Source of the DNA: Escherichia coli
Lineage (GTDB): Bacteria; Pseudomonadota; Gammaproteobacteria; Enterobacterales; Enterobacteriaceae
Reading direction: 5' to 3' (one strand)
Length of the DNA: 64,000 bases
NCBI RefSeq assembly: GCF_003334785.1
Contig: NZ_QOWV01000001.1
In this document: piece after piece, positions 1,758 to 60,804 of the stretch
How the letters are laid out: every line of letters starts with the position of its first letter
Position numbering within the stretch: position 1 is the first letter of the stretch
The notes under the pieces: generated by a model
Told to the model about the DNA's origin: nothing
Seen by the model: the letters and a program-made list of their open reading frames with translations, nothing else
Databases searched by the model: none
Translations under genes and position numbers: made by a program

Positions 1758-1856
<99 letters not shown>

Positions 1857-2810: not shown

Positions 2811-2900
2811 TGTAGGCCGGATAAGGCGTCCCCGCCGCATCCGGCACAGGCACCGTGCTGATGTCTGATGCGACGCTGGCGCGTCTTATCAGACCTACAA
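2811..2900. repeat. REP/BIME palindromic elements
   Basis: tgtaggccggataaggcgtccccgccgcatccggca ... cgtcttatcagacctaca match the REP consensus. Confidence 0.8.
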
Positions 2901-27815: not shown

Positions 27816-27903
27816 GTTCACTGCCGTACAGGCAGCTTAGAAATTCACAGGTAACATACTCCACCCGCCCACCATGTTCACTGCCGTACAGACAGATAAA
27901 ATG
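27816..27903 (+). CRISPR. orphan type I-F CRISPR remnant (repeat-spacer-degenerate repeat)
   Basis: 28-bp repeat gttcactgccgtacaggcagcttagaaa at 27816-27843, 32-bp spacer at 27844-27875, second repeat 27876-27903 identical at 22/28 positions; no cas genes in window. Confidence 0.8.
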
Positions 27904-27946: not shown

Positions 27947-28034
27947 TGGCGGTGAGGGGGGGATTCGAACCCCCGATACGTTGCCGTATACACACTTTCC
28001 AGGCGTGCTCCTTCAGCCACTCGGACACCTCACC
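27947..28034 (-). tRNA. serW: tRNA-Ser (anticodon GGA)
   Basis: 88-nt sequence whose reverse complement starts GGTGAGGTGTCCGAG and ends CACCGCCA with a long variable arm; anticodon loop CUGGAAA. Confidence 0.95.
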
Positions 28035-35286: not shown

Positions 35287-38200
35287 TTGAGCCAGGAATA
35301 CACTGAAGACAAAGAAGTCACATTGACAAAGTTAAGTAGCGGCCGCCGCCTTCTGGAGGCGTTGCTGATCCTTATTGTCCTGTTTGCCGTCTGGTTGATG
35401 GCTGCCTTACTAAGCTTTAACCCTTCGGACCCCAGCTGGTCGCAAACGGCCTGGCATGAACCTATCCATAATTTAGGTGGGATGCCCGGTGCGTGGTTGG
35501 CAGATACGCTGTTCTTTATTTTTGGCGTGATGGCTTACACCATTCCCGTCATTATTGTCGGCGGTTGTTGGTTTGCCTGGCGTCATCAGTCCAGCGACGA
35601 ATACATTGATTATTTTGCCGTTTCGCTACGCATCATTGGCGTTTTGGCGCTCATCCTTACCTCCTGTGGTCTGGCGGCAATCAACGCTGACGATATCTGG
35701 TATTTTGCCTCCGGTGGCGTCATTGGCAGCTTACTAAGCACTACGCTACAACCACTGCTACACAGTAGCGGGGGAACTATTGCGCTGCTCTGCGTTTGGG
35801 CAGCGGGCCTGACGTTGTTCACCGGTTGGTCATGGGTGACCATTGCTGAAAAACTCGGCGGCTGGATTTTAAACATTCTCACCTTCGCCAGTAATCGTAC
35901 CCGTCGCGATGATACCTGGGTCGATGAAGATGAGTATGAAGACGACGAAGAGTATGAAGATGAAAATCACGGCAAACAGCATGAATCACGCCGTGCCCGT
36001 ATTCTTCGCGGCGCGCTAGCGCGTCGTAAACGGTTGGCGGAAAAATTCATTAATCCGATGGGGCGGCAAACAGACGCTGCGTTGTTCTCCGGTAAGCGGA
36101 TGGATGATGACGAAGAGATTACCTACACTGCACGCGGTGTGGCTGCCGACCCGGACGACGTCCTATTTTCGGGCAATCGTGCAACGCAGCCAGAATATGA
36201 CGAATACGATCCATTATTAAACGGTGCGCCAATTACCGAACCTGTCGCTGTAGCAGCTGCTGCTACCACGGCGACACAAAGCTGGGCTGCGCCGGTTGAA
36301 CCTGTGACTCAGACGCCGCCTGTTGCCTCTGTTGATGTTCCACCTGCGCAACCTACAGTAGCCTGGCAGCCTGTACCGGGTCCACAAACGGGAGAGCCGG
36401 TTATTGCTCCTGCACCGGAAGGTTACCCACAGCAGTCACAATATGCGCAGCCTGCAGTGCAATATAATGAGCCGCTGCAACAACCAGTACAGCCGCAGCA
36501 GCCGTATTATGCACCTGCAGCTGAACAACCTGCGCAACAGCCGTATTATGCCCCTGCGCCAGAACAACCGGTGGCAGGTAACGCCTGGCAAGCCGAAGAG
36601 CAGCAATCCACTTTTGCTCCACAGTCTACATACCAGACTGAGCAAACTTATCAGCAGCCAGCCGCTCAGGAGCCGTTGTACCAACAGCCGCAACCCGTTG
36701 AACAGCAGCCTGTTGTGGAGCCTGAACCCGTTGTAGAAGAGACAAAACCCGCGCGTCCGCCGCTTTACTACTTTGAAGAAGTTGAAGAGAAGCGAGCCCG
36801 TGAACGTGAACAACTTGCGGCCTGGTATCAACCGATTCCAGAACCGGTTAAAGAACCAGAACCGATCAAATCTTCGCTGAAAGCACCTTCTGTTGCAGCA
36901 GTACCTCCAGTAGAAGCCGCTGCCGCTGTTTCCCCGCTGGCATCTGGCGTGAAAAAAGCGACACTGGCGACGGGGGCTGCCGCAACCGTTGCCGCGCCAG
37001 TCTTCAGTCTGGCAAATAGCGGTGGACCGCGTCCTCAGGTCAAAGAGGGGATTGGTCCGCAGTTGCCACGACCGAAACGTATCCGCGTGCCAACTCGTCG
37101 TGAACTGGCGTCTTACGGTATTAAGCTGCCCTCACAGCGTGCGGCGGAAGAAAAAGCCCGTGAAGCCCAGCGCAATCAGTACGATTCTGGCGATCAGTAC
37201 AACGATGATGAAATCGATGCGATGCAGCAGGATGAACTGGCACGTCAGTTCGCCCAGACACAGCAGCAACGCTATGGCGAACAGTATCAACATGATGTGC
37301 CCGTAAACGCAGAAGATGCAGATGCTGCGGCAGAGGCTGAACTGGCTCGTCAGTTTGCGCAAACTCAACAACAACGTTATTCCGGCGAACAACCGGCTGG
37401 GGCGAATCCGTTCTCGCTGGATGATTTTGAATTTTCGCCAATGAAAGCGTTGCTGGATGATGGTCCACACGAACCGTTGTTTACGCCAATTGTTGAACCT
37501 GTACAGCAGCCGCAACAACCGGTTGCACCGCAGCAGCAATATCAGCAGCCGCAACAACCAGTTCCGCCGCAGCCGCAGTATCAGCAGCCACAACAGCCGG
37601 TTGCGCCGCAGCCACAATATCAGCAGCCGCAACAACCGGTTGCGCCACAGCAGCAATATCAGCAGCCGCAACAACCGGTTGCGCCGCAGCAGCAGTATCA
37701 GCAGCCACAACAGCCAGTTGCGCCACAACCGCAGGATACCCTGCTTCATCCGCTGTTGATGCGTAATGGCGACAGCCGTCCGTTGCATAAACCGACGACG
37801 CCGCTGCCTTCTCTGGATTTGCTGACACCGCCGCCGAGCGAAGTGGAGCCGGTAGATACCTTTGCGCTTGAACAAATGGCTCGCCTGGTGGAAGCGCGTC
37901 TGGCTGATTTCCGTATTAAAGCCGATGTCGTCAATTACTCTCCGGGGCCGGTTATCACTCGCTTTGAATTGAACCTGGCACCGGGCGTAAAAGCGGCGCG
38001 CATTTCTAACTTGTCACGGGACCTTGCCCGTTCACTTTCGACGGTGGCGGTGCGTGTCGTTGAAGTTATTCCTGGCAAACCCTATGTAGGTCTGGAGTTA
38101 CCGAATAAAAAACGACAAACCGTTTATCTGCGCGAAGTTTTGGATAACGCCAAATTCCGCGATAATCCGTCGCCATTAACCGTGGTGCTGGGTAAAGATA

Positions 38201-42783: not shown

Positions 42784-42803
42784 TACCCAATTTTTCTGAA
42801 TCT

Positions 42804-42830
42804 AAAAAGCGCCTGCGGGCGCTTTTTTTG
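42804..42830 (+). terminator. rho-independent terminator of serS
   Basis: agcgcc-tgcg-ggcgct stem followed by ttttttt. Confidence 0.75.
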
Positions 42831-42837
42831 TCTCCCT

Positions 42838-42851
42838 TTGATACCGAACAA
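42838..42851. promoter_or_regulatory. candidate FNR site upstream of dmsA
   Basis: ttgat-accg-aacaa is a 9/10 match to TTGAT-N4-ATCAA; dmsABC is a known FNR-activated operon. Confidence 0.5.
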
Positions 42852-43021
42852 TAATTACTCCTCACTTACACGTAATACTACTTTCGAGTGAAAATCTACC
42901 TATCTCTTTGATTTTCAAATTATTCGATGTATACAAGCCTATATAGCGAACTGCTATAGAAATAATTACACAATACGGTTTGTTACTGGAATCAATCGTG
43001 AGCAAGCTTGAGTGAGCCATT

Positions 43022-53334: not shown

Positions 53335-55617
<2,283 letters not shown>

Positions 55618-55671
55618 GTAACACCTACCTTCTTAAGTGGATTTTTTATTTACTGCGTACTTCGACAACCA

Positions 55672-56529
55672 TTAATGGTGGTCGTTTTCACGCAGGTAAA
55701 TGACCCAGTATGTCAACCCAACCAACAAACCACCACCGATAATGTTGCCGATCGTAACCGGAATCAGGTTATCAGTGATGAAATTCATCACGGTCAGGTG
55801 AGAAAAATTTTCCGGTGCAGAACCGACTGCGGTCCAAAATTCCGGGGATGCGAAGTCGCGGATTACAATACCCATCGGGATCATAAACATGTTTGCGATA
55901 CTGTGCTCAAAACCGCTGGCAACAAACATCGCGACCGGCAGCACCATAATGAACGCTTTGTCCATCAGGCTGCGGCCAGAATAACTCATCCATACTGCCA
56001 GACATACCATCAGGTTTGCCAGGATACCAAGACAGACGGCCTCAATAAAAGTATGGTGCACTTTGTGGTCGGCGGTTTGTAGGACGTTTAGTCCCCATTG
56101 ACCATTTGCGGTCATATACTCGCCGGAAAGCCACATTAAAAGTACAAACAGCAGTGCGCCGACCAGGTTGCCAAAATAGACATTTAGCCAGTTTTTCGCC
56201 AACTGACCCCAGGTGATGCGCCCACTCGCCTTAGCAACAACAATCAACACGGTGGAAGTAAAGAGATCGGCTCCGCAGACAACACAAAGAATCAGCCCCA
56301 GAGAGAAGCAAATGCCGCCAACCAGTTTTGCCATGCCGAAGGGCATTGTGCCTGTGCCAGTGGTTGCTGTGATATAGAAGACGAATGCGATTGAGATGAA
56401 AACACCGGCGGTAATCGCCAGATAGAAAGTCTTAAGCGGATGTTTCGTTGCTTTATAGACACCCGCCTCTTCGGCCACTTTGGCCATTGCAGCAGGAAGT
56501 AAAAGATCAAAAGGGTTGTCAGCTTTCAC
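55672..56529 (-). CDS. focA: formate channel FocA
   Basis: 285 aa; GTG start at 56527-56529 (V-KADNPFDLLLPAAMAK); FNT-family membrane protein. Confidence 0.9.
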   Translation of the reverse strand: MKADNPFDLLLPAAMAKVAEEAGVYKATKHPLKTFYLAITAGVFISIAFVFYITATTGTGTMPFGMAKLVGGICFSLGLILCVVCGADLFTSTVLIVVAKASGRITWGQLAKNWLNVYFGNLVGALLFVLLMWLSGEYMTANGQWGLNVLQTADHKVHHTFIEAVCLGILANLMVCLAVWMSYSGRSLMDKAFIMVLPVAMFVASGFEHSIANMFMIPMGIVIRDFASPEFWTAVGSAPENFSHLTVMNFITDNLIPVTIGNIIGGGLLVGLTYWVIYLRENDHH

Positions 56530-56589
56530 ACTAACTCTCTCTTTATTAAGTCGGCGACGAGATACTAACAAAGCATTATAGATGAGAAA

Positions 56590-56603
56590 TTGATATAGAT
56601 CAT
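56590..56603. promoter_or_regulatory. candidate FNR site in focA-pflB promoter region
   Basis: ttgat-atag-atcat is a 9/10 match to TTGAT-N4-ATCAA about 60 bp upstream of the focA start. Confidence 0.45.
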
Positions 56604-56934
56604 ATCTCGCCTGGCTTATAGGCCCGTAACTCGCATGGTTTTTATGCAAATACGGAGTAAATATTTGATTATCCAAATAAAAATAAATTTTAAAAATTAA
56701 CAAATGAGTTGAATTTTTTCCGCATCCTCCGCTAAAACAGTTAATTAAAAGGGAGCATCAGGCGAATAAAGTAACAATATCGATCGTATTTATTAAATAC
56801 AAATTACCGATATTTAACCTTATAATTACAATTATTTTATTAATGCAAATATATGTAAAGCGGGGCATTAAAAAAACGCCCCGTAATATAACTCAGACTA
56901 ATCATTAAGCCTACATTGCGTAGGCTATTTGATT

Positions 56935-58695
56935 TTATTTTGCCCAGAATGCTGCTTTGGCGCGCTGCAGCTTTTCGTAGGCCTTCAACAACGACTGATG
57001 TGCAGCAAACGCGTGCAGATCGCTATCTACCGGTTGCAGGCCGTAAAACGCCGCTTCGCCGCTCATTGCCGCACTGGCGGCTTCTACGGCATCTGCGCCG
57101 TACATGCGAACAAACGCATTCAGATATTGCAGCGGCTGGCGATCTTCTTCCTGTGCCAGTAATAACAACGTTTGCAGGCAGCGATAATAGTTGGCGCGTT
57201 CCGGACTAAATACTGATGAGTTAAACTCCATCGTCCATTCGGTCCAGACCAGAGCCTGTTCCAGATCGCCACCAGCCAGCGCCAGCATGGCTTTTAATTC
57301 ACCGATACGCAGGGTGTACCAACCGTTATCCGACCCGGTCGCCAGACCCAACAGCTCACGCACGCGGGTAAAGTCATCAAAACCTTCTTCATCCAGTTGC
57401 TCGATGAGGTTCAGGTAATCTTCTTTTTCCCACTCGCTGCCTGGTAGCGAAAGAATCGTTTCACGTAAATGGCTGCCCATACTGTTATTCGCGAGCCACA
57501 GATCTTCAGCCGGATAAATATCGGACATGCCAGGCACGATAATACGGCAAGCATAAACGCCCAGATGCTCGTAATCGGCAATATAAACTTCTTTATCTTC
57601 TTTGTTGAAGATAGCCATCAGTGTGGCGAACTCTTCTTCCGTGGTGCCGGAGAAATTCCAGTCCACAAACGGATAATCGGCATCCTGCTTGAACAGGTCC
57701 CAGGAGATTAAACCGCTGGAATCGATAAAGTGCGTTTCGAGGTTGGTATGTTCAGCGACTTCTTCATCATCGAAGGTTGGCGGAGTAAACACATCCAAAT
57801 CTTTCAGGCCACGACCTTGCAGCAGCTCGGTCACGGTACGTTCCAGTGCTACGCCAAAATCAGGATGCGCACCGAAAGAGGCAAAGCAGGTACCGTTAGC
57901 AGGATTGAACAGTACCACGCAAATCACCGGATACTGGCCGCCAAGCGAACCGTCATAAGCGAAGATTGGGAAACCCTCCGCTTCCAGCGTTTCGATGGCT
58001 TCAACTACTGCTGGGTAACGCGCCAGCACGTCTGCCGGGATCTCTGGCAGGCTGATGCTTTCAGCAATAATGCGGTTTTTCACGTAGCGTTCGAAAACTT
58101 CAGACAATCCCTGAACGCGTGCTTCGTTGCGGGTATTACCTGCGGACATACCGTTGGAGACGTACAGGTTACCAATGATATTCATCGGAATATAAACGGT
58201 CTGATTGTCGGACTGACGCGTAAACGGCAGGCCGCAAATACCACGATCTTCGTTACCGGATTGTAGGTCAATCAGCATGCTGCCGGTCAGTTCATTCTCC
58301 GGATCATAAAACGCGCGCAGACGGTCATCGAGCAGCCCTTCTGGCACATCGTCATTTTCGGTCAGTGGGAACCATTTTTCGTTGGGATAATGCACGAACG
58401 GACCGTTGGCGATGGTTTCGCCCAGCCAGAAGTCCGCAAAAAAGTAGTTGGTTGAGAGACGCTCGAAATATTCACCGAGTGCAGAAGCCAGCGCCGCTTT
58501 CTTGGTTGCGCCTTTACCGTTGGTAAAACACAGTGCGCACTCTTTGTCGCGAATATGTACAGACCAGACGTTAGGCACGGGATTCAGCCAGGAGGCCTCT
58601 TCAATCTGAAAGCCGAGGTCTGAAAGTTTTTGCTGGAAGCGAGCGATGGAATCTTCCAGAGCGGCATCTTTGCCGGGGATAAATGTTTGCGTCAT
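56935..58695 (-). CDS. ycaO: YcaO-family ATP-dependent protein
   Basis: 586 aa from MTQTFIPGKDAALEDS; YcaO superfamily domain. Confidence 0.9.
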   Translation of the reverse strand: MTQTFIPGKDAALEDSIARFQQKLSDLGFQIEEASWLNPVPNVWSVHIRDKECALCFTNGKGATKKAALASALGEYFERLSTNYFFADFWLGETIANGPFVHYPNEKWFPLTENDDVPEGLLDDRLRAFYDPENELTGSMLIDLQSGNEDRGICGLPFTRQSDNQTVYIPMNIIGNLYVSNGMSAGNTRNEARVQGLSEVFERYVKNRIIAESISLPEIPADVLARYPAVVEAIETLEAEGFPIFAYDGSLGGQYPVICVVLFNPANGTCFASFGAHPDFGVALERTVTELLQGRGLKDLDVFTPPTFDDEEVAEHTNLETHFIDSSGLISWDLFKQDADYPFVDWNFSGTTEEEFATLMAIFNKEDKEVYIADYEHLGVYACRIIVPGMSDIYPAEDLWLANNSMGSHLRETILSLPGSEWEKEDYLNLIEQLDEEGFDDFTRVRELLGLATGSDNGWYTLRIGELKAMLALAGGDLEQALVWTEWTMEFNSSVFSPERANYYRCLQTLLLLAQEEDRQPLQYLNAFVRMYGADAVEAASAAMSGEAAFYGLQPVDSDLHAFAAHQSLLKAYEKLQRAKAAFWAK

Positions 58696-58824
58696 GAAAA
58701 TCACTTTAGTCGTACGGAAAGCGCGCAATAATACGGGTTTTATCTCAAAGGCGCTATCACCGCCGCCATGCCGATGAACTGTTGACTATGCTTTTAGCGG
58801 ATAAACCACGTTAAGAGCATAAAA

Positions 58825-59517
58825 ATGAAGGCGTTCGATCTCCACCGTATGGCATTTGATAAAGTGCCTTTTGATTTCCTTGGCGAAGTTGCACTACGTA
58901 GTCTTTATACCTTTGTACTGGTCTTTTTGTTCCTCAAAATGACCGGAAGACGCGGTGTGCGGCAGATGTCGCTGTTTGAAGTTTTAATCATTCTGACGCT
59001 GGGATCAGCGGCGGGAGATGTGGCGTTTTATGATGATGTGCCGATGGTCCCGGTACTTATCGTCTTTATTACTCTGGCGTTGTTATACCGCCTGGTAATG
59101 TGGTTGATGGCGCACAGTGAAAAACTGGAAGATCTTCTGGAAGGCAAGCCAGTTGTCATTATTGAAGATGGCGAGCTGGCCTGGTCGAAACTCAATAACT
59201 CCAACATGACGGAATTTGAGTTCTTTATGGAGCTACGATTGCGTGGCGTGGAGCAGCTGGGGCAGGTACGTCTGGCGATTCTCGAAACCAACGGGCAAAT
59301 CAGTGTCTATTTCTTTGAAGATGACAAGGTGAAACCGGGTTTACTTATTTTACCCAGTGATTGTACGCAGCGTTACAAAGTGGTGCCGGAGTCGGCGGAC
59401 TATGCCTGTATTCGTTGTAGTGAAATCATTCATATGAAAGCGGGGGAAAAACAATTATGTCCGCGCTGTGCAAATCCAGAATGGACGAAGGCAAGTCGGG
59501 CAAAACGGGTGACCTGA
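58825..59517 (+). CDS. ycaP: DUF421 family inner membrane protein YcaP
   Basis: 230 aa; N-terminal TM segments; C-terminal CIRC...CPRC Cys pairs. Confidence 0.8.
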   Translation: MKAFDLHRMAFDKVPFDFLGEVALRSLYTFVLVFLFLKMTGRRGVRQMSLFEVLIILTLGSAAGDVAFYDDVPMVPVLIVFITLALLYRLVMWLMAHSEKLEDLLEGKPVVIIEDGELAWSKLNNSNMTEFEFFMELRLRGVEQLGQVRLAILETNGQISVYFFEDDKVKPGLLILPSDCTQRYKVVPESADYACIRCSEIIHMKAGEKQLCPRCANPEWTKASRAKRVT

Positions 59518-59715
59518 CAGTAAAAACATCGGCTTTTTGCTAATAATCCGAGAGATTCTTTTGTGTGATGCAAGCCACATTTTTGCCCTCAACGGTTTTA
59601 CTCATTGCGATGTGTGTCACTGAATGATAAAACCGATAGCCACAGGAATAATGTATTACCTGTGGTCGCAATCGATTGACCGCGGGTTAATAGCAACGCA
59701 ACGTGGTGAGGGGAA

Positions 59716-60804
59716 ATGGCTCAAATCTTCAATTTTAGTTCTGGTCCGGCAATGCTACCGGCAGAGGTGCTTAAACAGGCTCAACAGGAACTGCGCGACT
59801 GGAACGGTCTTGGTACGTCGGTGATGGAAGTGAGTCACCGTGGCAAAGAGTTCATTCAGGTTGCAGAGGAAGCCGAGAAGGATTTTCGCGATCTTCTTAA
59901 TGTCCCCTCCAACTACAAGGTATTATTCTGCCATGGCGGTGGTCGCGGTCAGTTTGCTGCGGTACCGCTGAATATTCTCGGTGATAAAACCACCGCAGAT
60001 TATGTTGATGCCGGTTACTGGGCGGCAAGTGCCATTAAAGAAGCGAAAAAATACTGCACGCCTAATGTCTTTGACGCCAAAGTGACTGTTGATGGTCTGC
60101 GCGCGGTTAAGCCAATGCGTGAATGGCAACTCTCTGATAATGCTGCTTATATGCATTATTGCCCGAATGAAACCATCGATGGTATCGCCATCGACGAAAC
60201 GCCAGACTTCGGCGCAGATGTGGTGGTCGCCGCTGACTTCTCTTCAACCATTCTTTCCCGTCCGATTGACGTCAGCCGTTATGGTGTAATTTACGCTGGC
60301 GCGCAGAAAAATATCGGCCCGGCTGGCCTGACAATCGTCATCGTTCGTGAAGATTTGCTGGGCAAAGCGAATATCGCGTGTCCGTCGATTCTGGATTATT
60401 CCATCCTCAACGATAACGGCTCCATGTTTAACACGCCGCCGACATTTGCCTGGTATCTATCTGGTCTGGTCTTTAAATGGCTGAAAGCGAACGGCGGTGT
60501 AGCTGAAATGGATAAAATCAATCAGCAAAAAGCAGAACTGCTATATGGGGTGATTGATAACAGCGATTTCTACCGCAATGACGTGGCGAAAGCTAACCGT
60601 TCGCGGATGAACGTGCCGTTCCAGTTGGCGGACAGTGCGCTTGACAAATTGTTCCTTGAAGAGTCTTTTGCTGCTGGCCTTCATGCACTGAAAGGTCACC
60701 GTGTGGTCGGCGGAATGCGCGCTTCTATTTATAACGCCATGCCGCTGGAAGGCGTTAAAGCGCTGACAGACTTCATGGTTGAGTTCGAACGCCGTCACGG
60801 TTAA
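59716..60804 (+). CDS. serC: phosphoserine aminotransferase
   Basis: 362 aa [19 protein letters not shown]...; class V aminotransferase. Confidence 0.97.

Follow-up and report, generated by a model that had tools for sequence, protein, structure and literature searches.

The ycaO gene of the window (the whole 64-kb stretch of Escherichia coli DNA that was analysed) encodes a stand-alone YcaO, acidic and homodimeric, which very probably thioamidates Met82 of ribosomal protein uL16, while the genes beside it lie outside the system. Thioamidation of Met82 by this identical protein has been shown in PMC13063428, from a published ycaO deletion and from in-vitro reconstitution, and the sequence analysed here holds nothing contrary to the uL16-thioamidase reading. 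Published work already covers the gene and its crystal structure, and also its substrate and the stand-alone context. The features of the locus on which the following discussion is based are:

55672..56529, minus strand: focA, formate channel (NF008069, 634 bits, and annotation), the downstream syntenic neighbour of ycaO and not a YcaO partner
56530..56860, minus strand: focA upstream regulatory region, AT-rich, about 34% GC
56861..56926, minus strand: two stable RNA hairpins (56908-56926 and 56861-56883) directly 3' of the ycaO stop
56935..58695, minus strand: ycaO, a YcaO enzyme of 586 aa that stands alone and activates backbone amides with ATP
58696..58824, no strand assigned: ycaO/ycaP divergent intergenic region, 129 bp
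58825..59517, plus strand: ycaP, 230-aa YetF/DUF421 membrane protein, divergent and upstream of ycaO

The identity of the gene is confirmed: positions 56935-58695 on the minus strand are ycaO of E. coli K-12. The window is colinear with the MG1655 genome from ybjO to cmk with 99.99% identity, the DNA between 56400 and 59700 is 100% identical to that strain, and every one of the 5426 complete E. coli genomes contains this segment. In the RefSeq gene order pflA-pflB-focA-ycaO stands on one side and ycaP-serC-aroA-ycaL-cmk on the other, and the coordinates originally given for the ycaO/ycaP pair and for both intergenic regions agree exactly with the annotation, as does the placement of ycaO between focA and the membrane protein ycaP. 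The open reading frame list gives a frame of 597 codons at 56935..58728 on the minus strand, from which the annotated ATG at 58695 yields the 586-aa product, and this start is supported by the orthologues, whose N-termini align to the same point. The protein coincides over 586 of 586 residues with PDB entries 4Q84, 4Q85 and 4Q86, of which 4Q84 represents the founding member of the EcYcaO group, and UniProt P75838, the EcYcaO entry, corresponds to the same gene.

Two Pfam domains cover most of the protein, YcaO (PF02624, residues 59-391, E = 4e-75) and YcaO_C (PF18381, residues 407-581, E = 3.5e-65), the latter a TPR-like dimerisation domain, and the equivalog model NF040716 scores 917.2 bits over residues 4-577 against a cutoff of 700. 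The residues S71, E75, E78, E199, E202, R203 and R286 are all present and are invariant in an alignment of ten orthologous sequences; this list of ATP-binding residues is based on that invariance and on the E202A variant of Rice et al. (PMC13063428), E202 being conserved among orthologues together with the other acidic and basic residues of the active site. The computed pI is 4.38, against 4.4 in PMC13063428, and the acidity is kept (pI 4.4-5.7) in the full-length relatives that were fetched, down to 31% identity. Low pI was the criterion of Rice et al. 2026, and the protein shows four properties of the EcYcaO group, namely the NF040716 score, the domains and residues, the low pI and the lack of a nearby partner.

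The original prediction was that ycaO acts alone on a protein substrate encoded elsewhere, which is supported and in fact already proven in the literature. The idea of such a substrate was right, but its treatment as an open question was not, the uL16 result having already been published (PMC13063428). Watson et al. 2020 (PMC7550191) first described a backbone thioamide at Met82 of uL16, with YcaO as the candidate enzyme, in ribosomes of aerobically grown cells. The experiment that had been proposed as a check, a comparison by mass spectrometry of the ribosomal proteins of wild type and of cells deleted for ycaO, is likewise found in Rice et al. 2026 (PMC13063428), where uL16 from the deletion strain is without the Met82 thioamide. 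In the same work purified EcYcaO, supplied with ATP, MgCl2 and Na2S, installed the thioamide in vitro only on full-length uL16; binding of EcYcaO to uL16 was tight, with a Kd of 9.8 nM, and folded uL16 was required, and the Klebsiella and Pseudomonas orthologues thioamidated in the same way. It should be noted that a ycaO deletion strain grows normally in LB and M9, a reservation as to the physiological importance. No uL16 gene lies in the 64-kb window, as judged from the annotation and from tblastn with a uL16 sequence. The pI of this query (11.22) and its R81-M82-G83 motif agree with PMC13063428, and the contrast between 11.2 for uL16 and 4.38 for YcaO agrees with the electrostatic complementarity to basic uL16 described there.

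According to the mechanism that we favour, the homodimeric and very acidic YcaO binds folded uL16, the product of the distant rplP, and the extended loop of uL16 enters the YcaO active site. ATP and Mg2+ activate the backbone carbonyl of Met82, sulfur then takes the place of the oxygen, and the product is a backbone thioamide near the peptidyl-transferase centre. The enzyme does this with no RRE/E1-like partner, dehydrogenase, TfuA or local precursor peptide, and focA-pflB-pflA and ycaP represent lineage-specific synteny, external to the system.

A different ribosomal role is implied by the name under which the protein appears in RefSeq, NCBIfam and PDB, S12 methylthiotransferase accessory factor, according to which YcaO would mainly assist the radical-SAM enzyme RimO in the beta-methylthiolation of Asp88 of uS12. 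As summarised in PMC13063428, Strader 2011 found YcaO co-purified with tagged uS12, and deletion of ycaO lowered S12 modification from 99% to 84%. However, RimO needs no helper to modify an S12 peptide in vitro, and cells deleted for rimO are fully devoid of the modification, while the AlphaFold3 ipTM values are low for both YcaO-uS12 (0.31) and YcaO-RimO (0.16) (PMC13063428). Moreover, ATP-dependent activation of a backbone amide has no evident role in radical-SAM methylthiolation of a side chain, and the small effect of the ycaO deletion on S12 could be indirect, via altered ribosomes. This literature points to an effect of YcaO at uS12 that is weak and probably indirect; YcaO may have a secondary or indirect role there, but we consider an S12 accessory factor improbable as the main role of the protein.

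The characterised YcaO enzymes mostly operate in RiPP clusters, and a cryptic cluster of this kind, with YcaO acting on an unannotated flanking precursor peptide or together with ycaP, had to be considered. The annotation of the 64-kb window contains no E1-like/RRE protein, SagB-type dehydrogenase, TfuA or precursor peptide, and tfuA is also absent from the 20 immediate (+1/-1) neighbours annotated in 12 sampled genomes; E. coli is without TfuA according to PMC13063428. An Rfam search over 55000-60500 at a permissive E-value gave zero matches. The intergenic regions flanking ycaO do hold several frames of 12-36 aa, and in or beside the two regions we counted ten small ORFs of at least 12 aa. 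In a tblastn conservation test, however, those beside ycaO stay open in no more than 0-4 further genera, and a count of 11 genera is reached only by frames that overlap the start and leader of focA. Specifically, the divergent region 58696..58824 contains no conserved small ORF, its frames of 14-35 aa being open in at most three other genera, and 56530..56860 contains no conserved precursor-like ORF apart from frames overlapping the focA start. None of the intergenic small ORFs is rich in Cys, Ser or Thr in the manner of a RiPP core peptide, and a precursor peptide in the flanks was rejected for lack of conservation; PMC13063428 also states that EcYcaO has no small ORF nearby. The protein itself falls far under the cutoffs of the TOMM model (TIGR03604, 43.7 bits, cutoff 219.25) and of the McrA-type model (TIGR03266, 39.1 bits, cutoff 365) and is a member of neither family.

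The other candidate in the flanks, ycaP, shares the 129-bp divergent region with ycaO and has a Cys-rich C-terminus, with a CxxC-x13-CxxC arrangement (Cys 195, 198, 212 and 215). Its product matches Pfam YetF_N (22-92) and DUF421 (97-170), followed by only weak zinc-ribbon matches at 175-226. We gathered related loci with the ten-sequence orthologue alignment, clustered the neighbouring genes into families and obtained a sample of 80 genomes with EcYcaO-type genes, with 78 loci in 16 taxon groups. The ycaP gene stands beside ycaO in 20 of the 78 loci, from 17 genera, all of them Enterobacterales, and it is missing where ycaO is kept in Pantoea, Erwinia, Mixta, Aeromonas, Pasteurellaceae and all non-enterobacterial loci. 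As a YcaO partner it was rejected, its co-occurrence being limited to part of Enterobacterales. No gene family is found beside ycaO in more than four of the 16 taxon groups, and the few that reach this number are at variable positions. These results, together with the demonstrated protein substrate, leave a local RiPP cluster largely refuted and with next to no probability. The claims that ycaO has no azoline or thioamide partner genes, and that no precursor-like ORF accompanies it, held in the window, and neighbour clustering over the 80 genomes gave no conserved partner; a conserved precursor or partner in the flanks, named at the outset as the sign of a local cluster, was found neither by annotation nor by tblastn ORF conservation nor by neighbour clustering.

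Outside Enterobacterales and Aeromonas the neighbours of ycaO are unrelated housekeeping genes and include asd, manA, tsaD, an aroE-like gene, rsmJ, tatD and mscS. Thioredoxin-fold genes were seen at +1 in Oceanisphaera (DsbG/DsbC-like) and in Desulfoarculaceae (thioredoxin-like), two isolated cases that are too few for a pattern. In two related Haemophilus species ycaO adjoins a RiPP maturation gene of the HvfX family, and we took this as a coincidence.

A further association concerns the formate genes, and the synteny of ycaO with focA-pfl was already remarked in Watson 2020 (PMC7550191). In 42 of the 78 loci focA is the +1 neighbour of ycaO, always in Enterobacterales or Aeromonas, and pflB comes next after focA in 38; one Grimontia locus keeps pflB and pflA near ycaO. 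By analogy with the thioamidation of McrA, it might be supposed that the order ycaO-focA-pflB-pflA reflects a role of YcaO in anaerobic formate/pyruvate metabolism, for instance in the modification of a glycyl-radical enzyme. However, the link is absent where ycaO is kept in Pasteurellaceae, Shewanella, Pseudoalteromonas, Methylophaga, Bacteriovoracaceae and others, and focA/pfl was judged unlikely as a functional partner. The thioamide of uL16 is present in cells grown aerobically (PMC7550191), focA-pfl has promoters of its own, so that its transcription is independent of ycaO (Sawers 2005, as cited in PMC7550191), and a proteome-wide AlphaFold3 screen gave uL16, uL29 and YcaO itself as the only confident YcaO interactors, PflB and FocA not being among them (PMC13063428). 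A role in formate/pyruvate metabolism appears very improbable in view of these data.

Regarding the intergenic features, the RNA fold of 56861..56926 has an energy of -30.1 kcal/mol (z = -4.35 against shuffles), and a weak U-rich stretch comes after the hairpin at 56861-56883; this second hairpin and the U-rich stretch likely form the ycaO terminator region, a function suggested by the sequence. GC content is 0.336 at 56500-56999, and the upstream focA-pfl promoters are known to lie in 56530..56860. The consensus scans detected the 56908-56926 hairpin on the plus strand also, as a terminator, and a promoter-like TTTACA-17-AATAAT at 56859..56831 on the minus strand, a consensus match only, and both are given as description, the counts of the promoter and terminator scans not being above those of shuffles. 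The divergent region 58696..58824 presumably carries the ycaO and ycaP promoters, and the consensus scan gave no strong sigma-70 match in it.

The reaction in vitro used sulfide, a non-physiological donor, and for this reason a trans-acting sulfur carrier may be needed in the cell, so that "stand-alone" may be only partly true. A hint about such a carrier comes from the OsmC/YcaO fusions (TIGR03549) of Halobacteriovorax/Bacteriovoracaceae, the closest relatives of EcYcaO in that lineage. Their YcaO plus YcaO_C part shows 54% full-length identity to EcYcaO and is similarly acidic (pI 4.7). The fusions add an N-terminal OsmC-like domain of about 145 aa, which EcYcaO lacks according to Pfam; hence EcYcaO, with 681.9 bits over model positions 148-722 only, remains under the cutoff of 900 and is not a member of TIGR03549. 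Three cysteines of the OsmC domain are invariant in 120 of 120 sequences, and by the Rosetta-stone argument this hints at a thiol or persulfide protein as a co-worker of YcaO. That sulfur reaches the uL16-type YcaO in E. coli through an OsmC-like, cysteine-based protein from another locus is a tentative proposal to which we give a low probability; only one lineage has the fusion, and its OsmC domain could just as well be a peroxidase with no link to YcaO function. Homologues of 650-820 aa (P0234-P0261) were considered as further OsmC fusions and rejected, being YcaO proteins with long low-complexity insertions. The fusion is not discussed in Rice et al. 2026 or in the other literature searched, and it bears only on the route of sulfur where TfuA is absent, not on the effect of the thioamide in translation.

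Compared with the known systems, the gene studied here is identical to that of EcYcaO, the Pseudomonadota thioamidase of uL16 Met82 (P75838; Rice et al. 2026, PMC13063428), and shares its domains, pI, active site and stand-alone context, with no difference. The TOMM cyclodehydratases (SagD/McbD/BalhD-type) have in common with EcYcaO the YcaO ATP-binding fold and the conserved ATP/Mg2+ residues, but their systems include an E1-like/RRE partner, an FMN dehydrogenase and a precursor peptide, none of which is near E. coli ycaO, and their product is a heterocycle on a peptide, while that of EcYcaO is a thioamide on a protein. Closer in chemistry is the methanogen YcaO (with or without TfuA; TIGR03266; PDB 6PE3/6PEU, MJ1094), which thioamidates Gly465 of McrA, the methyl-coenzyme M reductase: in both cases a backbone thioamide is placed on a folded housekeeping protein by ATP-dependent amide activation and a sulfide equivalent. 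In sequence, however, the two are distant (39 bits against the TIGR03266 cutoff of 365; E = 7e-4 over about 130 residues with 6PE3), and the methanogen enzyme has no C-terminal YcaO_C/TPR domain, unlike EcYcaO. It often acts in concert with TfuA and a carrier of the ThiS type, lacking in E. coli, and short McrA peptides suffice for it, whereas EcYcaO requires folded uL16 (PMC13063428). The thioamide of uL16, which adjoins the peptidyl-transferase centre, is the second one known in a protein, after that of McrA.

The RefSeq gene order at this locus is pflA, pflB, focA and ycaO, all on the minus strand, followed by ycaP, serC, aroA, ycaL, cmk and rpsA on the plus strand, and the coordinates originally assigned to ycaO, ycaP and both intergenic regions proved to be exact:

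55672-56529, minus strand, focA
56530-56934, intergenic region between focA and ycaO
56935-58695, minus strand, ycaO (listed ORF 56935..58728; annotated ATG at 58695, giving a 586-aa product)
58696-58824, intergenic region between ycaO and ycaP
58825-59517, plus strand, ycaP (listed ORF 58825..59517)

Across 56400-59700 the DNA shows 100% identity to E. coli K-12 MG1655, and this stretch is matched in 5426/5426 complete E. coli genomes of the collection; the full 64-kb window, from ybjO to cmk, is colinear with MG1655 at 99.99% identity. In one E. coli strain, KFu015 (NZ_CP147130.1), an IS1A element interrupts the ycaO-ycaP stretch. Two stable hairpins lie directly 3' of the ycaO stop codon, followed by AT-rich DNA that forms the regulatory region of focA-pfl (Sawers 2005, as cited in PMC7550191).

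No E1-like/RRE protein, SagB-type dehydrogenase, TfuA, ThiS-like carrier or peptide precursor was found among the annotated genes of the 64 kb, and an Rfam scan of 55000-60500 gave no match, even at E <= 1. For every ORF of at least 12 aa in or beside both intergenic regions, 79 other genomes were examined to see whether it stays open in their ycaO flanks. The small ORFs adjoining ycaO are open in just 0-4 other genera; the sole ones open in 11 genera, 56516-56581 (plus) and 56565-56603 (minus), overlap both the leader and the start of focA, and are open only in close relatives with conserved DNA there. None of the intergenic small ORFs resembles a Cys/Ser/Thr-rich core peptide, and Rice et al. 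2026 (PMC13063428) likewise report no small ORF near ycaO. Window annotation, Rfam and small-ORF conservation therefore bear out the predicted lack of a partner or precursor in the ycaO flanks, and a cryptic RiPP cluster at this site is essentially excluded. The neighbouring ycaP encodes a 230-aa YetF/DUF421 membrane protein (YetF_N and DUF421 domains); its residues 195-215 carry a C-terminal CxxC-x13-CxxC motif, with weak Pfam zinc-ribbon matches.

The 586-aa YcaO agrees with PDB 4Q84/4Q85/4Q86 at every residue, contains the Pfam domains YcaO (59-391) and YcaO_C (407-581), and scores 917 bits with NCBIfam NF040716 (cutoff 700); the TOMM SagD-type and McrA-thioamidation models stay far under their cutoffs (43.7 against 219 and 39.1 against 365). 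It is acidic (computed pI 4.38, 92 acidic and 42 basic residues), and S71, E75, E78, E199, E202, R203 and R286 are all present and invariant across the aligned orthologues. Among 1.84 billion representative proteins searched, 665 relatives were found at E <= 1e-30, and the full-length ones fetched are all acidic (pI 4.4-5.7), down to 31% identity. Several relatives of 650-820 aa (P0234, P0237, P0240-P0242, P0246-P0248, P0261) have long insertions inside the YcaO domain, many of them acidic and of low complexity, e.g. DEYEYDD repeats.

Watson et al. 2020 (PMC7550191) saw in a 2.0-A ribosome map that uL16 carries a backbone thioamide at Met82; they proposed YcaO as the enzyme and remarked on the focA-pfl synteny. 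In Rice et al. 2026 (PMC13063428), the only confident interactors from a proteome-wide AlphaFold3 screen were uL16, uL29 and YcaO itself. In the same paper, thioamidation of full-length uL16 by purified MBP-EcYcaO required ATP, MgCl2 and Na2S, EcYcaO bound uL16 with a Kd of 9.8 nM and neither bound nor modified peptides of 11-24 residues, and the Klebsiella and Pseudomonas orthologues gave the same result. The mass spectrometry of ribosomal proteins proposed for a ycaO deletion and wild type is thus already published: ribosomal uL16 of the Keio deletion strain lacks the thioamide (PMC13063428). Deletion of ycaO alone causes no growth phenotype, but in minimal medium a strain lacking roxA grows slowly and the ycaO deletion relieves this defect. 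The literature on the identical protein shows that YcaO alone replaces the Met82 carbonyl oxygen with sulfur on folded uL16, dependent on ATP/Mg2+. In the chemistry established for the superfamily, a nucleophile attacks the amide, ATP phosphorylates the oxygen and phosphate is then eliminated (PMC13063428). E. coli has no TfuA, according to the same authors (PMC13063428).

The database name makes YcaO an S12 methylthiotransferase accessory factor, on the basis, as summarised in PMC13063428, of co-purification and a drop in S12 modification from 99% to 84%; as a primary function this is quite improbable, since RimO is enough by itself in vitro and modelled complexes for that role score poorly (PMC13063428). 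No uL16 gene is annotated in the window, and tblastn with a uL16 sequence gave only noise. Both the uL16 work (PMC13063428) and the lack of a conserved cis partner support the original prediction of a stand-alone YcaO acting on a protein substrate encoded elsewhere. Gene identity, domains, acidity, invariant active-site residues and the lack of a conserved cis partner are established here; the stand-alone enzyme with a remote protein substrate is already known, and the finding re-derives a published result.

To compare neighbourhoods, 80 ycaO loci with 10-kb flanks were taken from named genomes (Escherichia, Aeromonas, Pasteurellaceae, Gilliamella, Grimontia, Shewanella, Pseudoalteromonas, Methylophaga, Bacteriovoracaceae and a Desulfoarculaceae MAG), ORFs were called and 1309 neighbour proteins clustered.

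Table. Recurrent neighbours of ycaO (gene; position; loci; taxa).
focA; +1 of ycaO; 42; Enterobacterales, Aeromonas
pflB; after focA; 38; Enterobacterales, Aeromonas, one Grimontia locus
ycaP; -1 of ycaO; 20 (17 genera); Enterobacterales only
L-asparaginase II gene; -1 of ycaO; 9; Serratia, Hafnia, Photorhabdus, Edwardsiella, Budvicia

No family lies next to ycaO in more than 4/16 taxon groups, and those few stand at variable positions. Elsewhere ycaO lies beside unrelated housekeeping genes (asd, manA, tsaD, aroE-like, rsmJ, tatD, mscS, CoA-transferase, RRM protein), or, in metagenome contigs, cmoB-like, rng-like and CLC-channel genes; in Pantoea serC is directly divergent from ycaO, without ycaP. 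Because neighbours differ by lineage and Pantoea lacks ycaP, ycaO is stand-alone also in the genomic sense. A functional tie to focA-pfl, which the synteny might suggest, is very unlikely, because that synteny is lineage-restricted, focA-pfl is transcribed independently of ycaO (Sawers 2005, to the extent cited in PMC7550191) and the thioamide is found in aerobically grown cells (PMC7550191). The L-asparaginase II gene (NF008304, 688 bits), located between ycaO and ycaP or serC in L034, L037, L041, L045, L046 and L047, represents an insertion, specific to these lineages, in the gene order seen in E. coli. In the Haemophilus parahaemolyticus group (loci L064, 11962-12414, and L066) the gene immediately downstream of ycaO is an HvfX-family one for maturation of a Cu-binding RiPP; being seen in only two related species, it probably belongs to a separate RiPP operon and adjoins ycaO by coincidence.

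Elsewhere in the window, three Rfam gathering-level matches are ordinary E. coli K-12 features:

42797-42931, minus strand, sRNA STnc130 (140 bits)
2815-2895, plus strand, naRNA4/CssrE (75.5 bits)
1793-1835, plus strand, ES036/CssrF (42 bits)

Between clpA and tRNA-Ser (27947-28034, minus), two 28-nt CRISPR-type direct repeats (27816-27903, plus; Rfam CRISPR-DR4, 50 bits) are spaced by 60 nt, so that they enclose a single 32-nt spacer. No cas genes lie in the vicinity; this is presumably the orphan I-F-type CRISPR remnant known from the K-12 clpA-infA locus. In ftsK, a 195-nt self-match (37504-37737, 87% identity) at a 39-nt offset points to tandem repetition of a 39-nt (13-codon) unit in the linker region.

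EcYcaO also aligns to positions 148-722 of NCBIfam TIGR03549 (682 bits), a model of OsmC-domain/YcaO fusions. Rice et al. 2026 (PMC13063428) and the other searchable literature contain no discussion of such fusions. A search with one of them, P0123, returned at least 120 fusion clusters (P0123 and P0271-P0389; also locus L008, 7001-9190), among which all the named ones are Halobacteriovorax, Bacteriovorax, Bacteriovoracaceae or Bdellovibrionales. The fusion is confined to one lineage; at two other Bacteriovoracaceae loci the ycaO-type genes are unfused. The OsmC domain is N-terminal to the EcYcaO-type enzyme in the Halobacteriovorax/Bacteriovoracaceae fusions, and its cysteines C50, C59 and C112 are invariant in 120/120 fusion sequences. 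It is conceivable, if unlikely, that the fusion betrays the sulfur relay of uL16-type YcaOs, which would then be a thiol or persulfide protein; the domain could also be an unrelated add-on. The fusion is a possible hint to a sulfur or redox partner of these enzymes; its representative P0123, at 729 aa and pI 4.7, combines OsmC, YcaO and YcaO_C domains and is 54% identical to EcYcaO.
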